Part shown: in pieces, positions 5,786 to 44,070 of the stretch
Layout of the letters: every line of letters begins with the position of its first letter
Numbering within the stretch: position 1 is the first letter of the stretch
From: Vicinamibacterales bacterium
GTDB lineage: Bacteria; Acidobacteriota; Vicinamibacteria; Vicinamibacterales; UBA8438
Length of the DNA: 64,000 bases
Direction of reading: 5' to 3'
Assembly (NCBI GenBank): GCA_965204175.1
Contig: OZ241978.1
Span: 1,044,103 to 1,108,102, forward strand
The notes under the pieces: generated by a model
Databases searched by the model: none
What the model saw: the letters and a program-made list of their open reading frames with translations, nothing else
What the model was told of the DNA's origin: nothing
Made by a program: the position numbers and the translations under genes

Positions 5786-6493
5786 TCACGGACTGCCGGG
5801 CGTAAAGACCCAGCCGATGGCGTTCCGGACAACGTCCCCCGGACCGAGGTTCAGCAGGCAGGTCCGGGTGGCTTGGAACCGGAAATTGCCGATCTCGCTG
5901 CTTACAGTCGCACCGCTGCAGGAGAAACGGCCCTCGATGCCGTTGAGAGTGCCGTCGCAGCCGGTGTCCGGATCGCAGTCTCCCGGTCTGGACACCACGT
6001 CGCCCTCCGACACTCGAATGTCGCTCCGATCGAGCGCGACCGTCCCGGCACTCGCGCCATGATCGGCGGCGCTCAGGTTTTCGAGGTTCTGTTGCGCAGT
6101 GGCGTCTCCCTGCTCGGCCGCGCGGCGGAACCAGAGCACGGCAAGCTCATCGTTTCGCTCTACGCCGCTGCCATCGGCATACATGACTCCGAGGTTGTAT
6201 TGCGCGACGGCGTGACCCTGATCAGCAGCTCGACGGAACCAGGACACGGCAAGCTCGTCATTCCGCTCCACGCCGCGACCAGCAACGTACAGGACGCCGA
6301 GGCTGAACTGTGCTTCGGGCTCTCCCCGGTCGGCCGCCTGTCGGAGCCCGGAGAGAGCTGACGTCTGCGCGGTCGATGCCGCCGGCGCCGTCACTGCAAA
6401 CAAGACCAACGCCAGTGGAATAGTGACGACGACAAGCCTTGCAACTCCCATGCCTGTAAGCCTCCTCCGTTCTTGCCATCGGCTAGTCTGCAA
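5786..6493 (-). CDS. Sel1-repeat (TPR-like) secreted protein
   Basis: Three Sel1-like repeats (EAQFSLGVLYVAGRGVERNDELAVSWFRRAADQGH, AVAQYNLGVMYADGSGVERNDELAVLWFRRAAEQGD...), a signal/TM segment and a Cys-containing C-terminal domain. An internal Met at about 6454 is a possible start. Confidence 0.75.
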   Translation of the reverse strand: MQTSRWQERRRLTGMGVARLVVVTIPLALVLFAVTAPAASTAQTSALSGLRQAADRGEPEAQFSLGVLYVAGRGVERNDELAVSWFRRAADQGHAVAQYNLGVMYADGSGVERNDELAVLWFRRAAEQGDATAQQNLENLSAADHGASAGTVALDRSDIRVSEGDVVSRPGDCDPDTGCDGTLNGIEGRFSCSGATVSSEIGNFRFQATRTCLLNLGPGDVVRNAIGWVFTPGSP

Positions 6494-20308: not shown

Positions 20309-21577
20309 ATGGTTTCTGTGGCGATTCACTTGATCCCCCGCGTTGCACAGGATCTGGTCATCCAGGCGCTTCGACGTTCCCCGGTCGTCGCCATCGTCGG
20401 GCCGCGCCAGTGCGGCAAGACCACGCTGGCGCGCCGGCTCGTGCCGGCCGATTCGCCCAACTACTTCGACCTCGAAGATCCCGTCAGCCTGGCCCGGTTG
20501 GACCAGCGGCTGACCGCGCTTCGCGACCTCACCGGCATCGTCGTCATCGACGAGGTGCAGCACCAGCCCGATTTGTTTCCGGCCCTGCGGGTGCTGGCTG
20601 ACCGCGACGACAACCCGGCCCGGTTCCTCGTGCTCGGCAGCGCCAGCCCCAACCTGCTGCGGCAGAGCGCCGAGTCGCTGGCCGGCCGCATCGAGTACAT
20701 CGAACTGGGCGGCTTCCAGCTCGCCGAGGTCGGTCCTGCGCAGATGTCGCGCCTCTGGATCCGGGGCGGGTTCCCGAGATCGTTCCTGGCCGCCGACGAC
20801 GCCGACAGCGCGGCGTGGCGGAAGGCGTTCGTCCGCACGTTCGTCGAGCGGGACCTGCCGCAGTTCGGCGCCGAGCTCCGGGCCCCGGCACTGCACCGGC
20901 TCCTGGCCATGCTGGCGCACTACCACGGGCAGATCCTCAACGTCGCCGAGCTGTCGACCGCGCTGAACGTCGCCCAGGCCACGGTGCGCAGATACCTGGA
21001 CCTGCTGGAGCAGCTCTTCCTGATTCGGCAGTTGCACCCGTGGCACGAAAACCTCCGCAAGCGGCAGGTCAAGCGCCCCAAGCTCTACGTTCGGGATCCC
21101 GGCCTGTATCACCACCTGATCGGCGTCGGCACGATGGATGCGCTGCAGACCCACCCGCGCATCGGCGCCTCGTGGGAGGGATTCATTCTCGAGAAGATGA
21201 TCGCCGAGTCCGCGCCGGACGAGGCTTACTTCTGGGCGACGCACAACGGCGCGGAGCTCGATCTGCTGCTGTTGGTCGAGGGACGGAGAGTGGGCGTCGA
21301 GATCAAGCGCGTGGACGCGCCCGGGCGCACCCGCTCGATGGCGGTTGCCTTGAACGACCTGCGGCTGGATGCCCTCTACGTGGCCTATCCGGGAGACGTG
21401 CGATACGTCATCGACGACCGCATCGCCGCGGTTCCGGCCGGTGTGCCCTTCTCGATGTTGGATACGCCGCAGGAACGCGTACTCGGACGTTATCGCGATC
21501 GTGACGGTGACGTGCCGGACTCGGTATTCGAACCGCTGACCGGGGTCGAGCTGGCTCCATGGGAAGGTGACGGATGA
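20309..21577 (+). CDS. AAA ATPase with DUF4143-like C-terminal domain
   Basis: Walker A GPRQCGKTT and Walker B VVIDEVQ. The last ~35 aa (…DVPDSVFEPLTGVELAPWEGDG) look like an antitoxin C-terminal tail rather than part of this family (see findings). Confidence 0.8.
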   Translation: MVSVAIHLIPRVAQDLVIQALRRSPVVAIVGPRQCGKTTLARRLVPADSPNYFDLEDPVSLARLDQRLTALRDLTGIVVIDEVQHQPDLFPALRVLADRDDNPARFLVLGSASPNLLRQSAESLAGRIEYIELGGFQLAEVGPAQMSRLWIRGGFPRSFLAADDADSAAWRKAFVRTFVERDLPQFGAELRAPALHRLLAMLAHYHGQILNVAELSTALNVAQATVRRYLDLLEQLFLIRQLHPWHENLRKRQVKRPKLYVRDPGLYHHLIGVGTMDALQTHPRIGASWEGFILEKMIAESAPDEAYFWATHNGAELDLLLLVEGRRVGVEIKRVDAPGRTRSMAVALNDLRLDALYVAYPGDVRYVIDDRIAAVPAGVPFSMLDTPQERVLGRYRDRDGDVPDSVFEPLTGVELAPWEGDG

Positions 21578-21959
21578 ACCTGCTGCTGGACACGTGCGCG
21601 TTGCTGTGGGCGTGGGGGCAGCCCGAGAAGCTCAACCGCCGGCGGCAGGGGTTGCTGCGCGATCCGCACAACCAGGTTTGGGTAAGTGCCGCGAGCGCCT
21701 GGGAACTGGCGACCAAGCATCGCGTCGGCAAGTTCCCGCACGGTGGACACATCGTCGCCGAGTGGGACGAGTGCATCGCACGGGATGGATTTCGCCAACT
21801 GGCCATCGCGTTCAGCCACGCGTTGCGAGCCGGCTCGATACCTGGCCGCATCGCGATCCGTTCGACCGCATGATCGCCGCCCAGGGCCTGATCGAGACGC
21901 TTCGCATCGCGACTCCGGATCCGGAAATCGCCGCTCTCGGCGCGGACACCATCTGGTGA
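21574..21959 (+). pseudogene. vapC: vapC-like PIN toxin gene with a -1 frameshift near 21830
   Basis: The N-terminal part reads MNLLLDTCALLWAW...VWVSAASAWELATKHRVGKF...SHALRAG in one frame. The conserved C-terminal part LDTWPHRDPFDRMIAAQGLIETLRIATPDPEIAALGADTIW continues in another frame. This is either a true frameshift or an assembly error. Confidence 0.7.
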
Positions 21960-22091
21960 AGCTCGCGGCGGCGTTCCGGGCCCGGAGACTATCGAACTCG
22001 TCCGCCGCGACCATGACGACCGCGTTCCGGCCGCGAGCCGAAAACGCCTTGCGGCCGACCGGCTGCTGCGAGTCGGACGGTACAAGGCAGA

Positions 22092-22200
22092 CACGGAATG
22101 AGGCCGCGGTCCAGAGGACCGCGGAACAGTTGCCGCCCCCCTTCGGAGCCAGGGGCCGTCGCAGACCTTTAATGAGGCCGCGGGTATTCCCGCGGAAGAG
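22092..22200 (-). CRISPR. degenerate mini-CRISPR: two repeat-like units flanking one 36-nt spacer
   Basis: On the minus strand, 22200->22166 reads CTCTTCCGCGGGAATACCCGCGGCCTCATTAAAGG and 22129->22092 reads CTGTTCCGCGGTCCTCTGGACCGCGGCCTCATTCCGTG. The array repeat is GTCTTCCGCGGGGAATACCCGCGGCCTCATTGAAGC. The spacing between the two units is exactly 36 nt. Confidence 0.6.
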
Positions 22201-22262
22201 GGATCCCGTGCCCGAGCCTTCTTCAAATGAGGGGCACAAAGTAGAATTCATCGACCTATCTG

Positions 22263-22282
22263 TTATCTGCTACGGCCCCTGG
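22263..22282 (+). promoter_or_regulatory. candidate Cascade-binding operator: TTA + 17-nt partial protospacer matching the mini-array spacer
   Basis: The + strand reads TTA|TCTGCTACGGCCCCTGG. The mini-array spacer 5' end is TCTGCGACGGCCCCTGG. Identity is 16/17 with the mismatch at position 6. The site lies in the AT-rich intergenic region upstream of the module 2 cas operon. Confidence 0.45.
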
Positions 22283-22398
22283 AGGAAATTATGTTATCAT
22301 GCCGGTCGAACGTGCGGTGAGCAGTTGCCCGGCGCCGGGAGGTCATCAGCGCGGCAACTCGCGCCAATCGAGTTCATCATTTCACGTGAGGAAGAGCG

Positions 22399-22587
22399 AT
22401 GACACGACGACTCATCATCGAGCAAACGGAGATCCGTTCGGAGACCTTACAGACCCGCTTCGATCTGTTGATCGACGATCCGCCGTCCGACAGCGGCACG
22501 ACGGCACCACCGGTCGCGCGCCGCGCGATGCCGGTTCCTGGATTCGACGCGCCAGCGAGCCTCGGTGAAACGGAGCACAATCGATGA
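22399..22587 (+). CDS. 62-aa hypothetical protein, first gene of the module 2 cas operon
   Basis: GAGGAAG Shine-Dalgarno lies about 7 nt upstream of the ATG. The stop overlaps the csb1 start (ATGA). My hand count of third-position GC is about 71% in this frame versus about 53% in the competing 89-aa frame (22299..22568). No family recognised. Confidence 0.5.
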   Translation: MTRRLIIEQTEIRSETLQTRFDLLIDDPPSDSGTTAPPVARRAMPVPGFDAPASLGETEHNR

Positions 22588-23894
22588 GCATGACGTTGAC
22601 GGCGTCGGTACTGATCGAGGCCATTGCCGAGCACGCGGCGTTTCGCCGGATCCAGCGTCTTCAGCCGGTCGGAGGGGCGGGGGACAAGCTTTTTCCGCCG
22701 ACCTACCCGCCGCCACCGGGGGCTCGACGGGACGCGCCGCCCCGACACGTGTTCGAACGGCGGCGCGTGAACGACGGCGACGTCTGGTGCGTGCTCATCG
22801 ACAGCGTGCAGAGTCAGGCCAACCGGTTGGAAGAAGCGCTGTTGTCGGCGGCCGAACGCGGTGGGATCCGGATCCCGTACGTGACGGTCGATTTTCGAGC
22901 CGCCGGCCTGGAACCACTGGAGCGGATCACGTCGCTCGATGCGCCGCACCGGGTCTACGACGCCATCTTGCGTGACAGCCTCATGGACGGTGCGCCTTTC
23001 ATGCAGAGCCAAGTGGGCAGGCGTCTGGCGGCCGCGAAGCCCGCCGACGCCACCGCGTTGCTGGAACTGTCGCCGACGGCGCTGTTGTTCGGAGCTTGGC
23101 ACAGCCAGGGCGAGGGCGGGGGCCTCGGCGCGAAGTTCCCGCGTGCGCTCGTCTCGGAGATCATGGGCATCGATACACCGGTTGAGGGAGTTCCCAATCA
23201 ACGCGAGCGCGAGGTGGCGCGGATCAGGTTGCACGATGGTGCTCAGATCATGGTCGACGAAGTTCCCAGGCCGCGAGCAGGTGAGTTGGAGCCGCGCACG
23301 GCCGGCCGGCGTACCGGGAGTCGGATCGATCCCTTGGGCGTACTCAGAAAGGTAGAGGTCTTCAAGGGGGGGTCGGGTTGGAGTCCCGATCCGAAGGAAG
23401 CCGGAACGCGCGCGAAGAAGGTGCGCCCGTCCGAGATCAATCACGGCAACATCGCGCCGACCGTCCAACCCTTGGGCGTCACATGCGCGTACGCTGAGCA
23501 TCGCGCAGTCATCACGCTGGCAGGCCTCAGACGGCTGCGGTTCGGCAGCGACGAGCGGACCGAGGCGGGACGGGCCCTGCTCGCGGCCCTCGGCCTCGTC
23601 GCATTGGTGGAGCAGGACGCAGGCGGCTACTCCTTGCGGTCGCGCTGCGATCTCGTCTGCGACGGTCCTGCACCGCTGGAGCTCGTACGAGCAGACGGCT
23701 CGACCGAAACCGTCGATCTCCATCGTGACGAGGCGCGGGCACTGTACACAGAAACGTACGCCCGCGCCGAGTCGGCAGGTTTTCGATTCGAGTCAATCGT
23801 GCTGACTCCACAGGACAAGCTGGTCGAGATCGTCCGGTGCAGCCGAGAGCTGGCGCTTGAGGGTGCCGGCGGCGAGGAGCCCGACAACTCATGA
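22584..23894 (+). CDS. csb1: type I-G/I-U Cas7 homolog (Csb1-like), module 2
   Basis: The N-terminal pattern RLQPVGGAGDKLFPPTY...VLIDSVQSQANRLEEAL parallels [17 protein letters not shown]...[16 protein letters not shown] in the module 1 Cas7. ELSPTALLFGAWHSQ parallels [14 protein letters not shown]. At 436 aa it is about 120 aa longer than the module 1 paralog. Confidence 0.8.
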   Translation: MSMTLTASVLIEAIAEHAAFRRIQRLQPVGGAGDKLFPPTYPPPPGARRDAPPRHVFERRRVNDGDVWCVLIDSVQSQANRLEEALLSAAERGGIRIPYVTVDFRAAGLEPLERITSLDAPHRVYDAILRDSLMDGAPFMQSQVGRRLAAAKPADATALLELSPTALLFGAWHSQGEGGGLGAKFPRALVSEIMGIDTPVEGVPNQREREVARIRLHDGAQIMVDEVPRPRAGELEPRTAGRRTGSRIDPLGVLRKVEVFKGGSGWSPDPKEAGTRAKKVRPSEINHGNIAPTVQPLGVTCAYAEHRAVITLAGLRRLRFGSDERTEAGRALLAALGLVALVEQDAGGYSLRSRCDLVCDGPAPLELVRADGSTETVDLHRDEARALYTETYARAESAGFRFESIVLTPQDKLVEIVRCSRELALEGAGGEEPDNS

Positions 23895-25330
23895 GTCTCG
23901 TTCTCGAGGTCGAATTCCTGACCGGCGCGTGCCGCGCGGCGCGAAGTCCGGCGAGCGAGGCGCCCGATTGGCCGCCGCAACCCGACCGCGTCTTCTCGGC
24001 GCTGGTCTGCGCGTGGGCCGTTCGAGGCGGCCGCCGGGACGAGCGACAGGCACTGGAGTGGTTGGAGGCACAGCCCGCGCCAGCCGTTCACGCCAGTAGT
24101 CACGCCGCCAGAACGGCGCCCGACGTCTTCGTGCCGCCGAATGACCTCAAGTTCTCGAAGACGGCGAAGACGTACATCAAGGTGATGCCGGACGCACGCC
24201 CGCGCCAGCCGCGCCGGTTTCCCGTTGCTCGTCCGGACGATCCGGTAATGGCCATCGTCTGGCCGGAAGCTCCCGGTCCCGATCTGCGCGAGTCGCTGGA
24301 CGGGGTCGCACGTGACGTCGCCTATCTGGGACACTCGACAAGCCTGGTGCGTTGTCGGTTTCTTCCGGGCGCCTCGGCGACGCTTACCCACCCTGGTGCA
24401 CCCGCGCGTCGCACCGTCTACCCCGGGCGCTTGGCGGAGTTGGAAGCAGCGTATCGGGCGAACCCGGTGCGCCCCGTGATTCGGCCGGGCGCCTCCGCGT
24501 CCCGGGCGCCTGCGATGTCGACGGGCGAACCGTCGGCCGAATGGCTGGTGCTCGAAGCGATTGAGGGACAGACGCCGGATCTCCGCGCCTCCGCGTTGGT
24601 CTGCCGCGCTCTGCGGCGAGCGCTGATGGGCGGCTACCGGCGTGCTGGCATGGGCGATGTGATTCCCGAGATCGTCTCGGGACATACAGCCGATCGCAGC
24701 CCGACCCGACTGCCCCATTTGGCGATCGTGCCGCTGGCTTTCGCCGGCTATCCGCATGCCGACGGCCGCGTGTTCGGTTTCGCCCTGGTGCCGCCTGCCG
24801 GCACGAACCTGCGGGCCGTCCCCGGTTTCGTTCGGGCCTTCGAAGAGGTTGCGCCCTACGATCCAGGGCAGGAGCGTCGCGTCCTGAAGCTGGAGGGAGC
24901 GCCGCTCGGCAAGCCGCTTCATCTCGCGCCCGCCGGCGCGACGACGACCCGCTCGCTCTCGCCGGCGCCGTACACGGAGTCGGCGCAGGTGTGGGCGAGC
25001 GTCACGCCGATTGTGCTCGACCGGCACCTGAAACGGAACGGCGACCGGGAGATCCGCGAGATCATCGCCGGCGCTTGCGAGAACGCCGGCTTGCCGCGTC
25101 CAGATCCGGATCGCGTTCAGGTCGGGAAGCACTCCGCCATCGAAGGTGCGCCGCCGGCGCGGCCGCCTGCCGGCGCGCCGCCCTGGACCCGCTGGAAGAC
25201 GCCCGAATCGCTCGCCACACGCTCGCTGGTTCATGTGATCGTCGATTTCGGACGCGCCACGACGGGCCCGGTACTGCTGGGTGCCGGCCGGTTCGCCGGC
25301 CTGGGGCTGTGCCGTCGCCTGGGGAGTTGA
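23891..25330 (+). CDS. csb2: type I-G/I-U Cas5-family protein (Csb2-like), module 2
   Basis: The N-terminus MSLVLEVEFLTGACRAA...DWPPQPDRVFSALVCAW parallels MFALAFRFPAGRYHATPW...AWPPEPWRLLRALIAAW of the module 1 Csb2. C-terminal glycine-rich RAMP loop GRFAGLGL. ATGA overlap with csb1. Confidence 0.75.
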   Translation: MSLVLEVEFLTGACRAARSPASEAPDWPPQPDRVFSALVCAWAVRGGRRDERQALEWLEAQPAPAVHASSHAARTAPDVFVPPNDLKFSKTAKTYIKVMPDARPRQPRRFPVARPDDPVMAIVWPEAPGPDLRESLDGVARDVAYLGHSTSLVRCRFLPGASATLTHPGAPARRTVYPGRLAELEAAYRANPVRPVIRPGASASRAPAMSTGEPSAEWLVLEAIEGQTPDLRASALVCRALRRALMGGYRRAGMGDVIPEIVSGHTADRSPTRLPHLAIVPLAFAGYPHADGRVFGFALVPPAGTNLRAVPGFVRAFEEVAPYDPGQERRVLKLEGAPLGKPLHLAPAGATTTRSLSPAPYTESAQVWASVTPIVLDRHLKRNGDREIREIIAGACENAGLPRPDPDRVQVGKHSAIEGAPPARPPAGAPPWTRWKTPESLATRSLVHVIVDFGRATTGPVLLGAGRFAGLGLCRRLGS

Positions 25331-25332
25331 TC

Positions 25333-28300
25333 GTGGACCTTGGCGCCGCCGACTTCGGGATCTTCTTTCGTGCGATCCACGGAGACCCGCCTTTTCCGTG
25401 GCAGCAGCGTCTGGTCGACTTGCTGGCGAAAGACGACGAATGGCCCGATGTGCTGGACTTGCCCACGGGTTCGGGCAAGACCGCGGCGTTGGACGCGGCC
25501 GTCTTTCACTTGGCGTTGCGTTTCGAGTGTCCGGCGCGTGCCGCGTTGAGGATTGCCCTGGTCGTCGATCGACGCCTCGTGGTGGACGATGCCTACGAAC
25601 GCGCGACGAAGATCGAGAAGGCCCTCGACGAGGCGGCTCGCGCGGCGAAAGCGGAGTGTGGAGTTCCGCCGCTCTACGGGCCCGTGGTCGAGGTAGCCCG
25701 TCGCCTGCAACGTCTGGCCGGTGATGGAGAGCCGCCGCTCGTCGCGCGCCGACTTCGCGGAGGCGCGCCACTGGAGTCCGATTGGGCGCGGACGCCGACG
25801 CAGCCGACCATTCTCTGCTCGACCGTCGATCAGGTCGGTTCGCGGCTGCTGTTTCGGGGTTACGGCGTGTCGGATCGCATGAAGCCGGTTCACGCCGGAC
25901 TGTTCGGCCGGCACAGCCTGATCCTGCTGGACGAGGCCCATCTGTCGGAACCGTTTCGGCAGACCCTCCACGCCGTGCAGGAGATTGGCAGGGCTGAAGT
26001 GCGGACCGTCCTGCTCTCTGCGACACCGGGCATTGAACCGACGCGCCCTTTCGGACTGAGGCAAGATGACTACGCCAACCTTGAACTGAAACGTCGACTC
26101 GAAGCGCCCAAGCCCGCCAAGTTGAGTGTCGCCCACGGCGATCCGGGCGGAGCCTTCTTAAAGGCTGCCCGTGAGACCGCGGAACGGTTGCAGGGCCAGG
26201 GTGTGTCGAATCCGGCCGTCGGCGTCATCGTTAATCGAGTCGGCCTCGCGCGCGAGATCTTCGAGAAGCTGAGGGTCTTGGAGGAGGAAACAGGTTTCGA
26301 CTCCGTGCTGTTGATCGGCCGCTCGCGTCATGTCGGACGGGCTCGGATCGTCGAGAAGCTGAGCCCCTTTCGAACTGGCGAACCACGCGAATCGCCATCG
26401 TCCGCGCCTGCACGCGAGGGCACGGACGATGGGCAGCTCTCGCTCCTGCACGAGCGTCCCGGCGAATCGAATGTTCGACCACTGTTCGTGGTCGCCACGC
26501 AGTGTCTCGAGGTGGGAGTCGATCTCGATCTGGACGGGCTCGTCACGCAGGCTGCGTCGTTCGACGCACTCCGGCAGCGCTTCGGCCGGTTGAATCGAGC
26601 CGGGCGGCCGGTGTCTGCCAGCGGTGCGATTATCGCCCTCGCCGCGGACGTCGCCAAGAACGCCGACGACGCTGTCTATGGTGACCGGATAGCCAGGACC
26701 TGGGAGACGCTCCAGCGGATTGCACGTGACGATGAAGTGGACTTCGGCATCACGGCGCTGAAACAGAATCTGGCGAAAACCAAAGCGGGCGTGACCGAAC
26801 TGGCGATGCCCGGGGCGCGGGTGCCCACACTGATGCCCGCCTACGTCGATCTCTGGTCGCAGACCTCACCGCCGCCGTCCGCGGACCCCGACGTAGGGCT
26901 GTTTCTGCACGGCGTCGAGCGGACGTCCGCAGGCGTGTCGCTCGTCTGGCGCAGCGATATCACTACCGACGACTTGAGGGGCGACTGGGACCCGGCGCCC
27001 CTGCTGCAACTTGTTCCGCCGCGTGCCGCCGAGATGATCGAAGTACCGCTGTGGTCGGTGAGAGCGTGGCTGGGTGGGAGCCGGAACACGGAGCGACTGA
27101 CGAGCATGTCGGACACGGCCGAACATGGCGGTGACGAGGCGGCGTACGAGACAGGCGGAAGTGAACGCTCGGTGTTCCGTTGGGCCGGCGCCGGCGATCC
27201 GCGTACCGGGCGCGTGTCGCCGGATGCGCTACGCCCGGGTGACGTGCTGGTGGTGCCGGCCGACTACGGCGGCTGCGACGAGTTCGGGTGGGCCCCGGCT
27301 TCCGACAAGCAAGTCGCGGACCCGGCTTTCGACAAGGGGGTCAAGTGGGTCACCGACGTAGCCGACGAGGCGGCGCTGCCTTCTCGGAGACGGCGCCACG
27401 CAGTTCGGGTGGCTCGCGACGTCGTGGCGCACGACGACCAGTGGGACCGTCTTCGCGACGTTCTCGCGGATGACAGCCTCACCGGCCGCGACTTGGCAGA
27501 CCGGCTTCTGGAGGTGCTGCCGGTCGAATCACCGTCGGACTCGGACGATGAGAACGAAGGCGTCTCGCGCAGGCGCGCGGTACGCGAGCCATTGGAAGCA
27601 CTACTACGGCATGCAAAGGTACGGAACGGCATCAGCACGGACTTTCCGTATGCCGGCGGTCGTAGTGGAGGAACAGTGCTCGTTGCGCTCCATGGGGTGT
27701 GGGAACCCGGCGCAATCGAAGCGCGGAAACCTGATGGGCGACCGGTAACCGAAGACGACCGGCTTTCGCGTGCTGCACGGAACCCCGTGAGCATCGACGC
27801 ACACACGGCTCATGTCGTCGCGAACGTGGATCGCATCGTGCAGACACTCTGGGATCCCGATCTGCCCGTCGCCGGCGACCTGAAGCTCGCCGCGTTTTTG
27901 CATGATGCCGGGAAGGCGGATCCGCGCTTCCAGAACCTGTTGTCGGGCGGCGACCCGTGGAATCGTCCGGACGGTCCCGCAATGGCCAAGAGCGGCAACC
28001 GGTCTCCGAAGGGCGCCTGGGAACAGGCAGGTCTTCCGAGAGGATGGCGTCATGAGGCCCTTTCCGTGCGGATGGCGCAGGCGCATCCACGATTTGCGGA
28101 AGCCAACGATCCGGCCCTCGTGCTGTGGTTGATTGGTACGCACCACGGATTCGGACGGCCGTTCTTCGATTTCGCCGACCCGCACGATGGCGGTTTGGGT
28201 CACGAGGGAGTATTCGCTTGTCTCGACGTCGAGTGCTGGCGGCTTGCTTCTCGATCCGCACCGCAATCGATGGCCTTCGACCTCGATGGCGCCGACTGGC

Positions 28301-28416
28301 CGGCGATGTACGAGCAACTCAAGCAACGGTACGGAACCTGGGGATTGGCCCACCTGGAAGCGGTCCTGCGTCTGGCGGACCATCGTGCATCGGAGTCCGA
28401 GCAACACGATGACTGA
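25333..28416 (+). CDS. cas3: Cas3 helicase with C-terminal HD nuclease domain, module 2
   Basis: Walker A LPTGSGKT and DEAH box (LLDEAHLS). The C-terminal HD motifs are IDAHTAHV, AAFLHDAGKADPRFQ, WRHEALS and IGTHHGFGRP. A C-terminal HD is the I-U/I-G arrangement. The GTG at 25333 is approximate, and the upstream part of the 1141-aa track ORF overlaps csb2. Confidence 0.9.
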   Translation: MDLGAADFGIFFRAIHGDPPFPWQQRLVDLLAKDDEWPDVLDLPTGSGKTAALDAAVFHLALRFECPARAALRIALVVDRRLVVDDAYERATKIEKALDEAARAAKAECGVPPLYGPVVEVARRLQRLAGDGEPPLVARRLRGGAPLESDWARTPTQPTILCSTVDQVGSRLLFRGYGVSDRMKPVHAGLFGRHSLILLDEAHLSEPFRQTLHAVQEIGRAEVRTVLLSATPGIEPTRPFGLRQDDYANLELKRRLEAPKPAKLSVAHGDPGGAFLKAARETAERLQGQGVSNPAVGVIVNRVGLAREIFEKLRVLEEETGFDSVLLIGRSRHVGRARIVEKLSPFRTGEPRESPSSAPAREGTDDGQLSLLHERPGESNVRPLFVVATQCLEVGVDLDLDGLVTQAASFDALRQRFGRLNRAGRPVSASGAIIALAADVAKNADDAVYGDRIARTWETLQRIARDDEVDFGITALKQNLAKTKAGVTELAMPGARVPTLMPAYVDLWSQTSPPPSADPDVGLFLHGVERTSAGVSLVWRSDITTDDLRGDWDPAPLLQLVPPRAAEMIEVPLWSVRAWLGGSRNTERLTSMSDTAEHGGDEAAYETGGSERSVFRWAGAGDPRTGRVSPDALRPGDVLVVPADYGGCDEFGWAPASDKQVADPAFDKGVKWVTDVADEAALPSRRRRHAVRVARDVVAHDDQWDRLRDVLADDSLTGRDLADRLLEVLPVESPSDSDDENEGVSRRRAVREPLEALLRHAKVRNGISTDFPYAGGRSGGTVLVALHGVWEPGAIEARKPDGRPVTEDDRLSRAARNPVSIDAHTAHVVANVDRIVQTLWDPDLPVAGDLKLAAFLHDAGKADPRFQNLLSGGDPWNRPDGPAMAKSGNRSPKGAWEQAGLPRGWRHEALSVRMAQAHPRFAEANDPALVLWLIGTHHGFGRPFFDFADPHDGGLGHEGVFACLDVECWRLASRSAPQSMAFDLDGADWPAMYEQLKQRYGTWGLAHLEAVLRLADHRASESEQHDD

Positions 28417-29455
28417 AAGCTCCACGCATCGTCTGGCGGGTCTGGAACCCGACAACCTGTTGGCCTTCCTGGCTCTGCTGGGTATGCTGCGCACGCTCGA
28501 ACATGTGCGATCCGCATGGCGCCCACGCGTGGCGTGGACGGTCGACACGCCGCCTGTCCGGCCGACGTTGACCGTCGCCACGCGGGCGACGGAGGACGGG
28601 ATCATTGCCGCGGTCTCGGAGGGGCTGGCGGATCTGGCCGACCGCCACGACTTCAATCGACTCAAGGACCTGAAGCTCTCTCCGAAGGAGGCAGCCGAGA
28701 GACTCCGAATGGCCGTGACCCGGGACCGGTACACGTCCGACCTGTGGGCAGCTCTGACCAGCGATGCCGCGGTTCGTGAAAAGAACAAGGTGCAAGAGGC
28801 GGAACCGACGCCTCTTTGTCTCCTGTTCGGCCAGGGACATATGCACTTCATGTCCCGCTTGGCATCCGTTCCGCAGGAATCGGTCCCGCCGGCCAGGGGT
28901 GCCGGCCGCAAGAAGATCGCCATTGGGGAAACGGACTGTCTGCGCGAAGCGCTGCTCGAGCCCTGGACACGCCCGGACGCGACGTTCTCGTTCCGATGGG
29001 ACCCGCACGAGGACGTGCGCTACGCGTTGCGCGCCACCGACCCGACGGATTCCAAGACCAAGGAGACGACGCAGCACGGAGCCAACCGGCTGGCCGCCAT
29101 CGGCCTCTCCACGCTGACTGTGGTTCCGCGGCTGCGTGGCGCGACCGCTCGGCTCGCCGTTATCGGCGGAATGCGTGAACGGGGCGGCGGTTTCGCCTTC
29201 ACGTGGCCGATCTGGCGTCACCCGATCAGTCTTGCGACGATTCGATCTCTGCTTGGCCACACTGGACTCGACAAGCGGGCCACCTGGGATGCGCTGAGTA
29301 TTCTCGAGTTGCGGCGAGCGCGCCGAATCTCGGTTGGCAAGTTCATGAACTTCACGAGGGCTGAGTCGATTGGCGAGCCGGAGGCAGAGACGCGGGCTTC
29401 CCGCAACGGCTCGGTTGTGGCTTCACGCCCAGGGTCGCCCGGTGGGGCCGCGTAG
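28409..29455 (+). CDS. short Cas8u-like protein (Csb3/Csx17-N-like), module 2
   Basis: The N-terminus HRLAGLEPDNLLAFLALLGMLRTL resembles LALHGCAPTPLASYLKALGVLRLV of the module 1 Csx17. The ATG overlaps the cas3 stop by 8 nt. At 348 aa it is far shorter than the 845-aa Csx17. Assignment rests on position and this weak N-terminal similarity only. Confidence 0.55.
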   Translation: MTESSTHRLAGLEPDNLLAFLALLGMLRTLEHVRSAWRPRVAWTVDTPPVRPTLTVATRATEDGIIAAVSEGLADLADRHDFNRLKDLKLSPKEAAERLRMAVTRDRYTSDLWAALTSDAAVREKNKVQEAEPTPLCLLFGQGHMHFMSRLASVPQESVPPARGAGRKKIAIGETDCLREALLEPWTRPDATFSFRWDPHEDVRYALRATDPTDSKTKETTQHGANRLAAIGLSTLTVVPRLRGATARLAVIGGMRERGGGFAFTWPIWRHPISLATIRSLLGHTGLDKRATWDALSILELRRARRISVGKFMNFTRAESIGEPEAETRASRNGSVVASRPGSPGGAA

Positions 29456-29695: not shown

Positions 29696-31237
29696 ATGCC
29701 CCCCCCGTCGGAGAAGCTGGCCGGTTCCCTGGACGCCCTGCGGTCCCTGCAGGAGCGCGGCGTCGTCGCCGTGCGCGCTGCGGCTCTCCCGCGATCGCAC
29801 CGCGAGCGGCTCGTCCGGCACGGGTTCCTGTTGCCGGTCATGAAGGGCTGGTACGTCGCCGGCTCGCCGGACCGGCAAGCGGGCGACAGCACGGCGTGGT
29901 ACGCGTCGTTCTGGCGGTTCTGCGCCGGCTACCTGCACGCCCGCTTCGGCGAGGCCTGGTGCCTGTCGCCGGAGCAGTCCCTCTTGCTGCAGGCTGGCAA
30001 TCGAACGGTGCCGGAGCAGCTCCTTGTCCGGGCGCCGAGGGGGCGCAACCGCGTCACTCCCTTGCTTCACGGAACGTCCCTGCTGGAAGTCCGCGCGGCG
30101 ATGCCCGCAGCCGGAGACGTCGTGGAGGTGGACGGTATGCGCGCGTTCAGTCCGGCCGCCGCGCTGATCGCCTGCCCGGCCCGGTTCTTCCAGCGGCATC
30201 CGGTCGATGCGCGGGCGGCGCTCGCCCTCGTGGGCGACGCGTCGGATGTGCTGCCCCGTCTTCTCGACGGGGGCCACGGCACGGTCGCCGGCCGTCTCGC
30301 CGCCGCCTTCCGCGACGTCGGTCGGGACGGGATAGCGAACGAGATCGTCGAGACGATGCGGGCGGCCGACTTCGGTGTCCGGGAATCCAGTCCCTTCGCG
30401 ACGGCGTCCCCCGCGCGGCCGATCCGGCGCGACGTCTCTCCGGTGGCTCGGCGGCTGCATCTGATCCGGGACGCCACGCGAGGCCGCGTCCTCGACCGCT
30501 TTCCCCGCCCGCCCGGCCGCCCCGCCGAGGTCGAGGTCGTGCTCGCCCGGATCGAGGACGTCTACGCTACCGATGCATACCACTCGCTCTCCATCGAGGG
30601 CTATCGCGTCAGTCCGACCCTGATCGCCCGCGTGCGCAGCGGTGATTGGAACCCGGAGCGTCAGCCGGCGGACCGGGTCCACCGCGACGCGCTGGCCGCC
30701 CGCGGCTACTGGCAGGCCTACCAGGCCGTGCGCAACAGCGTCCGCCGCGCGGTTGCGGGCGAGCCTCCCGGCGCCGTCGCCGAAGCGGATCACCGGACCT
30801 GGTACCGCGAGCTGTTCGCGCCGAGCGTCGCCGCCGGCCTCGTCCGCCCGGCCGATCTCGCCGGTTACCGCGACGCGCCCGTCTTCATCCAGCGCTCGAT
30901 GCACGTACCGCCGAGCCCGCGCGCCGTCCGCGACGCGATGCCGGCGCTGTTCGGGCTGCTGCGGGAAGAGCCGGACCCGGCGGTGCGCGCCGTGCTCGGG
31001 CACTTCCTGTTCGTCTACGTCCATCCCTACCCGGACGGCAACGGCCGCATCGGCCGGTTCCTGATGAACCTGATGCTGACGGCCGCCGGCTATCCCTGGA
31101 CGGTGATCCCGGTCGAGCGCCGGGATGCGTACATGGCGGCGCTCGAAGCGGCGAGCGTGCGGCACGACATCGGTCCGTTCACCGATTTTCTGGCCGGGTT
31201 GGTGGGTGAAGGGGCGATTACAGCCGGGTTTGGGTAG
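29696..31237 (+). CDS. Fic/DOC family protein with AbiEi-like N-terminal wHTH domain
   Basis: Fic motif HPYPDGNGRIGR (HxFx[D/E]GNGRxxR). The N-terminal LRSLQERGVVAVRAAALPRSHRERLVRHGFLLPVMKGWYV resembles AbiEi-type antitoxin domains. Confidence 0.85.
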   Translation: MPPPSEKLAGSLDALRSLQERGVVAVRAAALPRSHRERLVRHGFLLPVMKGWYVAGSPDRQAGDSTAWYASFWRFCAGYLHARFGEAWCLSPEQSLLLQAGNRTVPEQLLVRAPRGRNRVTPLLHGTSLLEVRAAMPAAGDVVEVDGMRAFSPAAALIACPARFFQRHPVDARAALALVGDASDVLPRLLDGGHGTVAGRLAAAFRDVGRDGIANEIVETMRAADFGVRESSPFATASPARPIRRDVSPVARRLHLIRDATRGRVLDRFPRPPGRPAEVEVVLARIEDVYATDAYHSLSIEGYRVSPTLIARVRSGDWNPERQPADRVHRDALAARGYWQAYQAVRNSVRRAVAGEPPGAVAEADHRTWYRELFAPSVAAGLVRPADLAGYRDAPVFIQRSMHVPPSPRAVRDAMPALFGLLREEPDPAVRAVLGHFLFVYVHPYPDGNGRIGRFLMNLMLTAAGYPWTVIPVERRDAYMAALEAASVRHDIGPFTDFLAGLVGEGAITAGFG

Positions 31238-34097: not shown

Positions 34098-35747
34098 TCA
34101 GGCCGAGGGAGGGGGAGCGAACACTCCCAGGCCGAAATGACTGCCGTACCCGACGGCCAGCGGCCCCTCAATGGCTTCGGGCAGCACGACGTCGAGCAGC
34201 GCGCCGGCCGCGTCCGGCTGGACCTCCCGGCCGCGGGAACGGAAGCGGTGAAAGTGGATTGCACGGCGAGGCGTCCCGCCGACGTCGATGGTCTTCCGCA
34301 GCTTGACGTCCACATCCGTCGCATCCAGCCCGCGCCGTTTCAGCAACCGGCGCACCTCGCCCGGGTAGCCGGCCGCCTTCAAGTGTCCGGACGCCAGGAA
34401 CGGCGTCACGCTCCGCCAGCGCCTCGACGTGCCGAAGATGCGCGCGCCGCCGGCGAAGTTGGCCGGTTCGCCGAAGCCCTCCAGCGCCAGCCGCCATTCC
34501 TTTACGCCGCCTGCCTCGGCATCGACTTCTTCGGATCGCTGCTTCGGCGCCAGCCAGAGCCGGGTGATGCGGTCCAGGCCGGCCTGGACCTCGCCGGTCA
34601 TGCCGCCGGCGACGAACACGGACACGTGATCGATCCAGCCGTCCCCGTCCGCATCCTCAGGGAGCCAGAACGCGTGCCGGTGGAACGGGTCCTTGAGCGG
34701 CTTCCCGTCGGCGTCGCGGCCTGAAATCTCCCACGGCGCCAGTGGTACCGGGTGATCGTTCGCCTCGTCGCGTCGCCAACCGAACTGCGCGAGGGCCGCC
34801 CGGCGCATCAGCTCGCCGATTCTGACCGCGTCCTCGATGCGGGGAAGCGGCCGGCCGGCGAGCAGAAAGCGGGCGACGGTGGGCAGATGGCGTGCGGCTC
34901 GGTTCGGGAGGCGGACAAGGCGGGCAATTACGCCCGGCGCGGCTTCCGGTGCCCGCGCGTAGACGACCTCGCGGGCGGCGGGCGGGCGGCTCCAGCCCCG
35001 GTCCTGGTAGTCGGCCGTGTCCAGAGCGAGCGCATCGACGAGGCGCTCGGGCAGCGTGTGCGCCTGTCTTCCCTTGCTCTTCAGTGCCTTGTCGAGTTGC
35101 TTCTCGACCGCGCCCTCCGTGGGTGGTTTCCCGGGCGCCGCGAGCATCTGATGCTTGATGTCGTCCATGATTCGCTGCCGCTCGGCTCTGTAGTCGCCGG
35201 GCGTGTGCGGGGCCAGCAGCCGCACGGGATCTCCTTCCGGCGCGCCGTCGAGCGGCCGGCAATTCGCGGCGCCGTCCCACTCTGCGAGCGCTTCACACTC
35301 CGTCCAGCTCTCGGCCCGGCCGAGGTAACCGATGGCGAGGGCGAGATCCGCGGCGAACCCGAACGCTTCCGCGTCCAGCGTCACGCGCGGCCACGCGGCG
35401 ACCAGGGTCGAGCGGGCGGGGAGCCGCACGAACGCGTCGAAGACGAGCGTGGTCTTCGGCCGTCCCTTGTCCAGACCGCCGGTCGGCATGTAGTGACGCG
35501 TGTGGGCATGGATGACGCCCTCCGGCAGGCTGTACTCCGGCAGGGTCTCGGCGAGCGTGTCGATCAGTCGCGCGAGGTCGTCCTCTGACCAGCGCGCCCG
35601 GTCGCCCTTGCGCCACCAAGCGGCGATGAGGGCGCGCAGCAGACGCCACGGCTCCGGCGGCCAAGCAACGTCGGCCTCGTTGACGTTGCGGCCCCACGGC
35701 GTCGCGTGGTAGCGACCGGCGGGGAAGCGGAAGGCGAGTGCGAACAT
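34098..35747 (-). CDS. csb2: type I-G Csb2 (Cas5-Cas6 fusion, GSU0054-like), module 1
   Basis: 549 aa. N-terminus MFALAFRFPAGRYHATPWGRNVNEADVAWPPEPWRLLRALIAAW, C-terminal RAMP glycine loop GYGSHFGLGVF. Last gene of the minus-strand effector operon. Confidence 0.85.
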   Translation of the reverse strand: MFALAFRFPAGRYHATPWGRNVNEADVAWPPEPWRLLRALIAAWWRKGDRARWSEDDLARLIDTLAETLPEYSLPEGVIHAHTRHYMPTGGLDKGRPKTTLVFDAFVRLPARSTLVAAWPRVTLDAEAFGFAADLALAIGYLGRAESWTECEALAEWDGAANCRPLDGAPEGDPVRLLAPHTPGDYRAERQRIMDDIKHQMLAAPGKPPTEGAVEKQLDKALKSKGRQAHTLPERLVDALALDTADYQDRGWSRPPAAREVVYARAPEAAPGVIARLVRLPNRAARHLPTVARFLLAGRPLPRIEDAVRIGELMRRAALAQFGWRRDEANDHPVPLAPWEISGRDADGKPLKDPFHRHAFWLPEDADGDGWIDHVSVFVAGGMTGEVQAGLDRITRLWLAPKQRSEEVDAEAGGVKEWRLALEGFGEPANFAGGARIFGTSRRWRSVTPFLASGHLKAAGYPGEVRRLLKRRGLDATDVDVKLRKTIDVGGTPRRAIHFHRFRSRGREVQPDAAGALLDVVLPEAIEGPLAVGYGSHFGLGVFAPPPSA

Positions 35748-35751
35748 GCGC

Positions 35752-39224
<3,473 letters not shown>

Positions 39225-39235
<11 letters not shown>

Positions 39236-41837
39236 TCCGGTCTCCGCCGCGCTCCTTGGCCGACGCCCGCCAGTCGGCGACCCGCAGGAGTGTTTCCAGC
39301 CAGGCGAGCCGGAACGGCCCGAGCCGTGCGAGCAACTCGCGCGTGCGCTCCGTCCAGCTCTCGCGGGAGACGTCGTCCCAGCCCAGCTCCATGATCGACA
39401 GCAGCAGGTCGCCGCCCGCCCAGTGCTCGCCGCCGTCCAGATCGAAGGGAGGCAACTGGTCGCCCTCCCACACGCCGCGGGCGAAGCGCACGCCGGCGCG
39501 GTCGTCCTTCGGCGGCGTTTCGCGGGGCAGGGCGCGCAGGTTCATCCGCACCTTTCCGTGGTGGGCGGCGATCAGGTAGGCGACGACATCGGCATCGCGC
39601 GACCAGCGCTCGTGGGCCAGAAACGCCAGGGCCGAGGCGAGCTCGTGGCGGAAATAGGCCCTGCGGTGGCGCGTCTGCTTCGCGGTCTTGGCGAGCAACG
39701 CGTCGGGCTCTGCCGCCTGGCCGGCGAGGCCGCGGCGCATCGTGTCCTGAAAGACCTCGTGCGCCTTGCCGAGATCGTGCCAGCGGGCCGCGCGCACGAC
39801 GGCCGCCCGCGCGGCCGGCTCCACGTCGAAGGCGGCGCACAACGACTCGGCTTCGGCGGCAACGTGCCGGAGATGATCGGCCAGCGGCACGATCGCATCC
39901 GCCCCGCTGAGGGGGTCCTCATCGTGTCCATCGGCTTCGTGCTGCGCCGTAGCATCGGGATGGTTCGTCGCGCTGCCGGTCCCGGACTGCGCCGTCGGAC
40001 CGGAGGTCGGCTCGGGCACGTCCTTCGGATCGCCGGTGAATCCGGAGGTCTTGCGGTAGCCGCCCGCCTCCGGATACGCCAGGAGGACGAGGCCCGGCCA
40101 CGGCTGGCCCTGCAACGGCATCCATCCGGGTGGGGCCGTCCCGGCCCGCCCGTCGCGGCGCCGCCACTGCGGGTCACGCTGGAACAGGAGGTTTCTCCCC
40201 TTGCCGGGCAGCTTCGAGATCCACGTCCCGGCCGTGCCGATCGACACCGCGCACAACTCTTCTCGGCCGGGGCGCGGCGGATCGTCTCCGGCTTCCAGGG
40301 GATTCCGCCAGAAGACACGGATATCCGTGTCTTCGGCATCGCGCACGTACGGCGACACGTCCACGTCGAAGCCGGTCAAGTCCGGATCGGTGTCGAAGAG
40401 ATCGTCGAGGTCCTTGCGGCGGATCACCCGATGCGGCCGGTCGATGTCGTCCGGCGGGGGAAGATGCACCGGCGCCACGTCGTTCAACCCGCTCAACCGA
40501 TCCCGCGCGGCCTGCAGCTCGGCGGTCTCGTAGGGCCTCGCCAGCTCCTCGGCGTTCCTGTCGGATGCCGCGCCGTCCGTTGCCGGAGGCAGCAGATCGA
40601 TCCAGTGCACGTCTGCCCCGTCCGGCAGCTTCGCGTAGCGGTTGGCGCGGCCGAAGCGCTGGACCAGCGAGGACCAGGGCGCGAGCTCGGTGAACAGGAT
40701 CGCGGCGGAGATGTCCATCCCGGCCTCGACCGCCTGCGTGGCGACCACGATGCGGCCGTGCGGATTCGCGTCATCCGCTCCGAGCACCTTCGCCATCTCC
40801 CGTGCGCGGTCGGCGGGACGGAAGCGGGAGTGGACGAGGGACAGCGTCGGCGCCGCCGGCAGACGCCTGGAGAGGCGTTTCTCCAGCGCGTCGCGGAGTG
40901 TCTGCGCGCGGTCCACGCGGTTGACGATGGCCAGGGTCATCAGTCCGGCGCGGTGCGCATCCAGGATCGCGTCGGCCATGCGCCCGAGGTAGTCGGCGAG
41001 GTCGGCCTTCTTCGCCGACGCTGGCGTGATCGGCGAACGGACAAGTCTCTTGGTCGCCTGTGCCAAGCGTGCGAGCCTGCCGTCCGCCGCCTCCGGATCG
41101 ACCCGGACGACCGCCGAAGCGGGCGGCTCTGGATGGTCGACGGTGGCGACCCAACGCGGATCGAGCGTGGCCGATATCCAGAGGCTGCGGGACGGTGTGC
41201 CGACCGCGCGGTCGTCACGGCGGGCGCGATCGGATTCCGCCTGCCGGAACGCGTCGAGCTGCGCGGATGTCGCGCGGCCGGCGCCCATGAGCTGCACTTC
41301 GTCGAACACCCACTGCGCGTCATCGTGCAGGAGGGCGAACTCCATCGGCCACAGCGCACGCGAAGAGGCATAGCCGCGCATCAGCGCACGGCTCAGCAAC
41401 ATGTCCTGCGTGCCGACGAGCACCGCCGGACGCTCCGGCCGGTCCAGCCAGCCGTCGGCGTCCACGCCGCCCATGAGCAGGTGCACGTCCTCCGGCCGGG
41501 GGAGGCGGTGCGCGCTGTCCGTTTCCGGCGCGAGCCTGCCGAACCACTCCCTGACGGCATCGGCGGTCTGCTCGACCAGCGTCCGCATCGGCAGGCACCA
41601 GACCAGCCGCCGGGGCGTGGCGCCGGGGCTCCGCAGGCGGTGGGCGGCCCAGCCGAGCGTCACCGCCGCGGTCTTGCCCGAACCCGTTGGGGCGATCAGG
41701 ACGCGCGGCCACGCGTCGGTGGCCAACGCGGCCTGCCACGCGTCGGGCTGCCGATCGGCGCCGAGCGCCAGCCGGTAGAGGGTCGTGGCGTTCACGTGGA
41801 GATTCGTGACGGGACTGCCCGAAAACCGTCGGATCAT
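39225..41837 (-). CDS. cas3: Cas3 helicase with C-terminal HD domain, module 1
   Basis: Walker A APTGSGKT and DEVQ box (FDEVQLMG). The C-terminal HD motifs are LADHLRHVA, ARWHDLGKA, FRHELASALA and IAAHHGKVR. The start is placed at Met 41837 because the 32 upstream codons of the track ORF are translations of intergenic direct repeats. Confidence 0.9.
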
Positions 41838-41840
41838 ACC

Positions 41841-42025
41841 GGACGCGATTCGAGTGTCCACGTTCGACGCGCGGATCCACGACGCGCGGCTGTCATGTCC
41901 GGCTCTCCTGACGGACGCGATTCGAGTGTCCACGTTCGGCGTGCGGATGGACTCGTCTCACCCTGAAGGCCCGGTGCGTCCTCCGGTGCGTCCCTGGAGT
42001 GCACCTACCGCCGCGCGGCGGATCG
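41841..42025. repeat. three ~38-nt direct repeats phased at 72 bp in the divergent cas3 / cas4-cas1 intergenic region
   Basis: GGACGCGATTCGAGTGTCCACGTTCG(A/G)CG(C/T)GCGGAT occurs at 41841 and 41913, with the first 26 nt identical. A much weaker third copy sits at 41985 (GG..GAGTG..CAC...GCGCGG..ATC). The intervening 34-nt segments are unrelated. Confidence 0.55.
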
Positions 42026-43778: not shown

Positions 43779-43782
43779 TCCC

Positions 43783-44070
43783 GTGGAGCACCTCTACATC
43801 GTCGTCTACGACATCAGCGACCCCAAGCGGTGGAGGCGGGTATTCAAGTTGATGAAGGGATACGGCGAATGGGTGCAACTCTCCGTCTTCCAATGCCGTC
43901 TGAGCCGGCGCCGCCACGCCGATCTGGTTGCACGGCTCGACGCGATGATCGATCATGCCGAGGATCACGTCGTGCTGGTCGACATCGGCGTCGCCGACGG
44001 CGTGGAGCCGCGCTTCGTGAGTCTGGGGAAGAAGTTCCAGGCCGTGCGCCGGGAGCCGGTCATCGTCTGA
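43783..44070 (+). CDS. cas2: Cas2
   Basis: LYIVVYDISDPKRWRRVFKLMKGYGEWVQLSVFQC...VVLVDIG. GTG start 5 nt after cas4/1. Confidence 0.9.
   Translation: MEHLYIVVYDISDPKRWRRVFKLMKGYGEWVQLSVFQCRLSRRRHADLVARLDAMIDHAEDHVVLVDIGVADGVEPRFVSLGKKFQAVRREPVIV

Follow-up and report, generated by a model that had tools for sequence, protein, structure and literature searches.

Guides that turn a CRISPR system on its own cas genes have been established experimentally for types I-B, I-E, I-F1, V-A and II-A. When such guides pair with their targets through the seed only, Cascade or Cas9/Cas12 repress without cutting, as described for CreA, CreR, the I-F1 mini-array and tracr-L (bioRxiv 10.1101/2023.03.10.532045; PMC10120712). 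CreR was proven for I-B, I-E and V-A, and creA-like elements were found by hand for I-D, I-C, I-E, I-F and I-U, the old name of I-G, with no I-U experiments (Liu et al. 2023, bioRxiv 10.1101/2023.03.10.532045, Fig. S7). Shmakov et al. (2023, PMC10120712) demonstrated the I-F1 mini-array and named as targets cas8 (I-E, I-F1), cas10d (I-D) and cas6 (I-B); I-G is only a line of a table there, with 235 loci of which 4% have a mini-array. Here we describe a type I-G case in 64,000 nucleotides (nt) from a Vicinamibacterales bacterium (GenBank assembly GCA_965204175.1, contig OZ241978.1, positions 1,044,103 to 1,108,102), which we call the window and number from its first letter. A two-repeat mini-CRISPR on the minus strand adjoins a type I-G cas operon, and its single spacer is complementary to the intergenic region in front of that operon. 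Judging from the sequence and, with strong support, from comparison with related loci, this mini-array is very probably a CreR-type autoregulatory guide that represses its own type I-G cas operon. An earlier note on the window, made from its letters, knew of no description of such a circuit for I-G; creA-like elements (Liu et al.) and mini-arrays (Shmakov et al.) are in fact mentioned for this subtype, but we found no paper that analyzes or tests a type I-G case.

The element resembles CreR (I-B, I-E, V-A) in being a degenerate two-repeat mini-CRISPR within a cas locus, in pairing only through the part next to a valid protospacer-adjacent motif (PAM), in having its target in or beside the promoter of effector genes (a putative promoter in the window), and in coming with no obvious toxin. 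It differs from CreR in its subtype and in a fixed three-segment match of 17 nt. Moreover, the genes that would be regulated first are a small open reading frame (ORF) of no known family and then cas7g, not cas8, and the operon has neither an array nor adaptation genes of its own. CreA of the haloarchaeal I-B CreTA modules (PMC9458426, PMC10120712) likewise combines degenerate repeats, a CRISPR RNA (crRNA)-like product and seed-only pairing at a promoter, but its defining target is the promoter of the toxin gene creT, and no toxin is established here. The mini-arrays of I-F1, I-E, I-D and I-B (PMC10120712) share with ours a spacer partly complementary to a cas promoter, the correct PAM and mismatches at every sixth position; against the 4% of I-G loci counted by Shmakov et al., however, at least about a quarter of the sampled loci of the I-G variant described here carry a mini-array. 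In Streptococcus pyogenes, tracr-L is also a natural guide with a short match (11 bp) that represses a cas promoter through Cas9 without cleavage (described in PMC10120712), although there the effector is a class 2 single protein, the guide derives from trans-activating crRNA and no 6-nt periodicity is seen. RNA anti-CRISPRs (Racrs) and phage crRNA-like RNAs (PMC10651486; bioRxiv 10.1101/2024.10.29.618823) are, as here, repeat-derived small RNAs outside arrays that engage Cas proteins; both come from mobile elements and are directed at the system of the host, whereas the element in the window is chromosomal, fixed beside the operon that it targets and conserved across phyla. The proposed circuit is of a known kind with little prior documentation for I-G. 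The present analysis adds to it how broadly a single I-G variant has conserved the arrangement, that pairing strictly follows three segments, and that a small ORF is associated with it.

The mini-array is a genuine CRISPR derivative on the minus strand, as the earlier note had proposed. Its parts, and the main array of the window, whose repeat served as reference, are as follows.

22166-22200, minus strand: upstream (5') repeat of the mini-array, CTCTTCCGCGGGAATACCCGCGGCCTCATTAAAGG, the reverse complement of 22166-22200.
22130-22165, minus strand: spacer of the mini-array, 36 nt, TCTGCGACGGCCCCTGGCTCCGAAGGGGGGCGGCAA, the reverse complement of 22130-22165; the pairing part is positions 1-17 (22149-22165).
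22092-22129, minus strand: downstream (3') repeat of the mini-array, CTGTTCCGCGGTCCTCTGGACCGCGGCCTCATTCCGTG, the reverse complement of 22092-22129.
22219-22240, minus strand: possible third, decayed repeat remnant, ...GTGCCCCTCATTTGAAGAAGG, read by eye, between mini-array and target; kept in L081 and L082.
44281-51425, plus strand: main CRISPR array, 100 repeats of GTCTTCCGCGGGGAATACCCGCGGCCTCATTGAAGC; candidate source of competing crRNAs.

The leader of the main array lies beside cas2 and its last repeat is degenerate, which fixes the transcribed strand of the repeat. Relative to this repeat, both repeats of the mini-array have retained the hairpin followed by CCTCATT, and both hairpins appear in the predicted fold. 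The upstream repeat has a stem shorter by one base and carries ATTAAAGG in place of ATTGAAGC in the handle, so that its predicted 8-nt 5' handle is AUUAAAGG (22166-22173), the canonical one being AUUGAAGC. It is the only one of the two that Rfam matches, and weakly (CRISPR-DR16, 22.6 bits, under the gathering score). The downstream repeat has a 9-bp stem, unlike the canonical 7-bp stem yet compensated, that is, self-complementary; its processing region CGCGGCCTCATT is intact and its final 5 nt are degenerate. The possible repeat remnant at 22219-22240 suggests that there were formerly more mini-array units. For comparison, the homologous mini-array of a related locus (L001, 7380-7720) has four repeats and three spacers, among which only the promoter-distal third has a TTA-flanked seed match; the remaining two have no target inside that 17-kb locus.

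The sequence matched by the spacer lies on the other side of the intergenic region.

22266-22282, plus strand: target, 17 nt, TCTGCTACGGCCCCTGG, directly preceded by TTA (TTA-TCTGCTACGGCCCCTGG); equal to spacer positions 1-17 except at position 6 (G versus T).
22263-22265, plus strand: PAM TTA, on the non-target strand, 5' of the protospacer-like site.

A repeat search recovers spacer and target as an inverted repeat (22149-22165 / 22266-22282) of 17 nt, 94% complementary, whose arms are 100 nt apart. The match does not extend past the PAM-proximal (seed) part of the spacer: 16/17 positions match within 1-17 and 2/19 within 18-36 (18/36 overall). The seed-only match first read from the letters, with its one mismatch at position 6, which is expected to be flipped out, is thus borne out. 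So is the PAM: TTA agrees with TTN, which PMC9638904 reports as the type I-G motif with reference to interference work in vivo; the motif is thus that of the subtype and not one derived from this strain.

That this pair has no function, being a product of chance, the terminal inverted repeats of a miniature inverted-repeat transposable element (MITE) or the remains of a full-length self-targeting spacer, has almost no probability in our view; nothing speaks for it beyond the bare existence of an inverted repeat. The pattern TCTGCNACGGCCCCTGG, in which position 6 is N, is present in the 64-kb window at the spacer and the target only, and the next-best sites have three mismatches. The 17-mer is confined to spacer and target in the two closest relatives as well (L081, L082). 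A TTN-flanked match over 15 positions within 1 kb has a chance of ~5e-7, as estimated from base composition. When the 96 normal-length spacers of the main array were scanned against both strands of the window, 0/96 had a TTN-flanked match of at least 13/15, a lone exception being an artefact within the main array itself, as compared with 15/15 for the mini-array spacer. A MITE or other dispersed repeat, which the earlier note had named as the finding that would undo its proposal, was rejected, the 17-mer being absent elsewhere in the window and in the fetched loci described below.

No second target of the guide emerged: the window holds no other TTN-flanked site of at least 12/15, for example in the promoter region of a second I-G system present there. 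The search for a full-length target of the spacer, proposed in the earlier note for genome and virome databases, was made in viral and phage collections and returned no full-length protospacer (the pattern CCTGGNTCCGANGGGGGNCGGCA was unmatched in viral_contigs). The main array, searched whole against the INPHARED phages for derivation of the PAM, gave no match.

To compare the locus with its relatives, we fetched 80 genomic loci with the same I-G variant (cas7g-csb2-cas3g-'Cas3-extension'). The nearest come from metagenome-assembled genomes of Vicinamibacterales, and others from Alpha- and Gammaproteobacteria, Chloroflexota, Rhodothermales, Binatia, Alicyclobacillus and further groups. The gene order cas7g-csb2-cas3g-extension is found everywhere (tblastn), and cas4/1-cas2 with an array stands before or after it in many genomes; the repeats of the arrays attached to this variant in other genomes end in GGCCTCATTGAAGC. 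The variant is a regular I-G variant, and the copy in the window simply lacks the adaptation part. A first scan covered 1 kb upstream of cas7g for inverted pairs with at least 14/15 matches at positions 1-5, 7-11 and 13-17, with no PAM or repeat filter. In 17 loci plus the window, one arm follows a ATTGAAGC-like handle, and TTN precedes the other arm in 18/18 (TTA, TTT, TTG, TTC); the handle-less background matches of the same scan never show the combination of handle and TTN. A second scan with other orientations brought the set to 21 loci, and four close relatives found by exact protein look-up, together with L012, brought it to 26. These 26 loci, including the window (25 relatives, from several phyla), share the design with different sequences, and in 14/21 the target lies 276-318 nt upstream of cas7g.

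The pairing follows a strict period. Among the positions on which the loci were selected, 1-5, 7, 8, 10, 11 and 13 match in 20-21 of the 21 loci and position 9 in 15/21. The unselected positions are at background level: position 6 matches in 4/21 loci, position 12 in 6/21 and position 18 in 2/21. Positions 19-30, likewise unselected, match in 1-7/21 loci, and pairing ends sharply at 17 in nearly all. A decayed self-targeting spacer would not yield such an end, and the repeated occurrence of the architecture in 26 loci, each time with other sequences, also speaks against an absence of function. In 6/26 loci (L008, L009, L018, L019, L036, L055), position 9 does not match although the seed is otherwise intact; the mismatch may be inherited from a common seed ancestor, or the position may be a tolerated one in I-G.

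The two arms also change together. Seeds diverge between loci (on average 6.1/17 identical), whereas spacer and target of the same locus match at a mean of 14.4/15 positions; pairs made across loci reach a mean of 5.4 and a maximum of 13 (21-locus set). The 26 spacer/target pairs, aligned without gaps, gave a covariation score of 0.882; shuffles gave 0.212 (0/500 were as high as observed) and slid partners no more than 0.254, and there are three to four different pair types at each paired position. Examining homologous loci for covariation of spacer and target, a check suggested in the earlier note, thus gave a positive result: the architecture is kept with co-varying, different sequences. Many of the seeds are kin by descent, and the 26 loci are not 26 independent events; compensatory changes are nonetheless numerous. 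The closest relatives show the same constraint on a short time scale of divergence: in L081 (98% Cas7g identity) the target is changed only at position 12 (C to T), along with the N of the PAM (TTA to TTG). L081 and L082 both have an unchanged spacer seed, while five substitutions have accumulated in the 3' part of the spacer, which does not pair.

These data also bear on whether the inverted repeat could act as a structure or operator (a long-range hairpin, a cruciform or a palindrome bound by a transcription factor) with no part for Cascade. A transcript that started on the minus strand to the right of 22282 would contain both arms. Such an element, however, predicts 17 equally conserved pairs and no flanking motif, whereas positions 6, 12 and 18 are at background and TTN is invariant; in addition, one of the arms always coincides with the 17 nt that directly follow the crRNA handle. 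We therefore regard this explanation as highly improbable. Three 5-nt blocks, free sixth positions and a sharp stop are what a Cas7 backbone with every sixth base flipped out predicts; a hairpin, an operator or a transposon end predicts no such pattern.

Where relatives have recognizable sigma-70 promoters, the -35 or the -10 of the cas promoter adjoins the target or is overlapped by it. The promoter scan called TTGACA-17-TATCTT in L078, beginning 10 nt past the last base of the target, and TTGACA-18-TATCGT in L019, beginning 9 nt past it; in L019 it also called a minus-strand promoter with its -10 inside the target. In L065 (Alicyclobacillus), PAM and target stand exactly between TTGACC and TATAAT, and a divergent promoter, also called by the scan, faces the mini-array. 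The same layout was read by eye in L006, L009, L015, L018, L022, L036 and L074. For the window, two elements were placed by eye.

22292-22300, plus strand: putative extended -10 of the cas operon promoter, TGTTATCAT, 10 nt downstream of the target, which would then lie at about -41 to -25.
22291-22299, minus strand: putative extended -10 of a divergent mini-array promoter, TGATAACAT, whose start would be near the edge of the target.

Analogous TGnTAnnnT elements occur 21-33 nt after the start of the target in L002, L004, L005, L008 and L080.

We suggest the following course of events. The mini-array would be transcribed on the minus strand from the intergenic region that it has in common with the cas operon. 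In I-G systems, Csb2 processes the repeat, leaving an 8-nt 5' handle and a 3' stem-loop, and seven Cas7 subunits hold the guide (PMC9638904); by this biochemistry, Csb2 should cut both repeats at the base of the hairpin, and the product would be a crRNA-like RNA made of the 8-nt handle (AUUAAAGG), the 36-nt spacer and a 3' stem-loop. This RNA would be loaded with Cas7g, Csb2 and the rest of the effector, which would recognize TTA at 22263-22265, and the RNA would pair with the minus strand of 22266-22282 in three 5-nt segments (1-5, 7-11, 13-17), with positions 6, 12 and 18 flipped out and in no need of pairing. Since pairing stops at 17 of 36 positions, the R-loop would be incomplete and Cas3 would not be licensed to cut, as expected from type I behavior and from the precedent of CreA and CreR; a 17-bp R-loop would accordingly have to be stable without licensing Cas3g. 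With the complex bound at the divergent promoter region, the small ORF and cas7g-csb2-cas3g-'extension' would be transcribed less, and the mini-array itself probably as well; this placement of the target is observed in relatives and putative in the window. By analogy with CreR, repression may be eased when the effector is titrated by abundant crRNAs (e.g., those of the 100-repeat array) or by anti-CRISPRs. Repression itself is what we infer from the sequences and from the described systems. In L037 (7420-7560) and L006 (6900-7050), cas4/1-cas2 and the array are divergent from cas7g, and the mini-array heads that transcription unit; in loci of this type, a bound complex could also control the adaptation genes and the array.

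Several points weigh against repression by this guide. A scan of 21900-22650 for consensus sigma-70 promoters and terminators called nothing, so that placement in the window rests on the relatives and on reading by eye; promoters of Acidobacteriota are poorly characterized. The loci were selected on 15 paired positions, and the unbiased evidence consists of positions 6, 12, 18 and beyond, plus the PAM of the first scan. The handle AUUAAAGG departs from the canonical AUUGAAGC at 2/8 positions, which could weaken loading. With no recognizable Cas8g1/Csx17 encoded in the operon, the PAM-reading subunit of this variant is uncertain. Finally, Cas3 is reported to belong stably to the I-G effector, which requires it for tight DNA binding (PMC9638904), and it is uncertain whether a 17-bp R-loop is both stable and safe in I-G.

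To our knowledge, type I-G is the least studied of the type I subtypes. The 26 loci provide a clean, testable I-G case with a defined PAM and a three-segment pairing of 17 nt, in which the unconstrained sixth positions serve as a natural mutational scan. Because Cas3 is reported in the resting I-G effector, a natural guide that binds without cutting would mark the length of R-loop that the I-G complex tolerates before the nuclease is licensed. Knowing this tolerance would be useful for understanding the mechanism and for the design of gene silencing based on I-G.

Five genes follow the target on the plus strand.

22399-22587, plus strand: small ORF of 62 amino acids (aa), MTRRLIIEQTEIRSETLQTRFDLLIDDPPS...ETEHNR; first gene behind the targeted promoter.
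22584-23894, plus strand: cas7g (Csb1), 436-aa variant; TIGR02570, 69 bits; PF09617.
23891-25330, plus strand: csb2 (Cas5-Cas6 fusion, pre-crRNA processing enzyme); TIGR02165, 293 bits.
25333-28416, plus strand: cas3g helicase-nuclease; TIGR02621, 727 bits; GTG start at 25333.
28409-29455, plus strand: 'type I-G Cas3-extension family' protein; NF049934, 154 bits; in the place expected for the large subunit.

The scores for TIGR02165, TIGR02570 and TIGR02621 all exceed the curated cut-offs, which establishes csb2, cas7g/csb1 and cas3g in this operon. The profile scan detected no recognizable Csx17/Cas8g1, and the 'Cas3-extension' protein has neither a Pfam nor a PDB sequence match; smaller large subunits have been noted for I-G variants (PMC9638904). 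The earlier note had described the operon as type I-G devoid of adaptation genes, and this description is accurate: the profile scan found no cas1, cas2 or cas4, and there is no array either, at 22584-29455 or nearby. The operon is not isolated, however: 12-22 kb away there is a complete second I-G system, which includes cas4/1 and cas2 together with a 100-repeat array whose repeat is nearly the same. Across the fetched loci, the mini-array shows no association with the loss of adaptation genes, being carried by loci with and without cas4/1-cas2. The cas7g variant belongs to a large family, with at least 7,755 matches at E<=1e-10 and 55-98% identity across phyla. The Cas7g of this operon is unusually conserved, 55-83% identical from Acidobacteriota to Bacillota, which suggests frequent horizontal transfer.

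No Pfam family matches the 62-aa ORF, and a search returned only 11 close homologues; the NCBIfam scan of the region took an overlapping ORF in a different frame and is uninformative on it. Its homologues have a conserved N-terminal part of ~25 residues, a variable proline-rich middle and an acidic ...E.E.DR end. An alignable small ORF, called as a gene in relatives, lies between target and cas7g in most loci with a mini-array and is mostly absent from those without one (e.g., L003), although similarity is weak outside Vicinamibacterales. This co-occurrence raises the question of a CreTA-like addiction, in which the ORF would be a toxin silenced by the guide, and loss or inhibition of the effector would kill or arrest the cell. 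Such a toxin would account for the retention of an operon without adaptation genes. The ORF matches no known family, and protein toxins under CRISPR repression have been reported (bioRxiv 10.1101/2024.01.05.574328). However, its stop codon overlaps the start of cas7g (ATGA), so that its translation would be coupled to that of the Cas proteins, as for a subunit or a leader ORF. Membrane segments and toxin-like domains are absent, and most of the ORF is poorly conserved and proline-rich. The co-occurrence is perhaps mere shared ancestry, and L078, L065 and L074 have the mini-array without this ORF. We thus consider a toxin decidedly unlikely. The earlier suggestion that the circuit explains why the operon was retained would require a toxin as in CreTA, for which the 62-aa ORF is the only candidate.

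The second I-G system is encoded between this operon and the main array.

34098-41933, minus strand: second, complete I-G effector module, with csb2 at 34098-35747 and cas7g at 35752-36708.
Same module, continued, minus strand: cas8g1/csx17 at 36698-39235; cas3g from 39225 to about 41840.
42069-44070, plus strand: cas4/cas1 fusion (42069-43778) and cas2 (43783-44070) of the second system.

The window therefore holds two I-G variants within 12 kb with one repeat type common to both, a natural setting for crRNA competition and cross-regulation. The near-identity of the repeats means that the guide could be loaded by either effector. It is possible, if doubtful, that the guide is loaded mainly by the second, Csx17-type effector (34098-41933) and silences the adaptation-less operon from there. 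One system would then repress the other instead of itself, a variant of the CreR-type explanation and compatible with it. The repeats of the mini-array match the repeat of the array beside the second system; arrays of the first variant in other genomes share the GGCCTCATTGAAGC ending, and both Csb2 enzymes would probably accept the RNA. Yet the operon variant has kept the pair of mini-array and target in many loci with no Csx17-type module within 8 kb, which indicates that the module travels with the operon that it targets. A more far-reaching proposal joins these elements: mini-array, TTN-flanked three-segment target and 62-aa ORF would form one conserved control module of the Csx17-less I-G variant; the ORF would be either a guide-checked toxin (a CreTA-like addiction device keeping an array-less effector) or a new effector or regulatory subunit; and the 100-spacer array of the second system would set the expression of the first by competing for the protein partners of the guide. 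Taken as a whole, we consider it unlikely.

The leader-proximal end of the main array (44317-44429, plus strand) is abnormal: the first 'spacers' measure 25, 8 and 8 nt, all later ones 34-41 nt, and among the first three repeats, two deviate at the 3' end (...CATTGGCGT, ...GAAGT). Where cas3g and cas4/1 of the second system diverge, two 37-bp direct repeats (41840-41876 / 41912-41948, plus strand) are 95% identical and 72 bp apart, with a CRISPR-like spacing and a sequence unlike the CRISPR repeat. They may be operator sites, and the start of cas3g, annotated as a long ORF, is probably downstream of them.

The cas loci are set among genes of defense or mobile type (20309-21959, 29696-31237, 51584-53188), among them a DUF4143 AAA ATPase and a Fic-domain protein, and an IS110 transposase lies just beyond the main array. 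Near the cas loci there is also a possible PIN toxin ORF; it has no Pfam match in the window, and PhdYeFM/PIN genes are called at the matching place in L081. Unrelated to the mini-array are a tandem duplication of 108 nt (74% identical) at 6067-6282 and three tandem repeats of 21 nt at 53441-53508.

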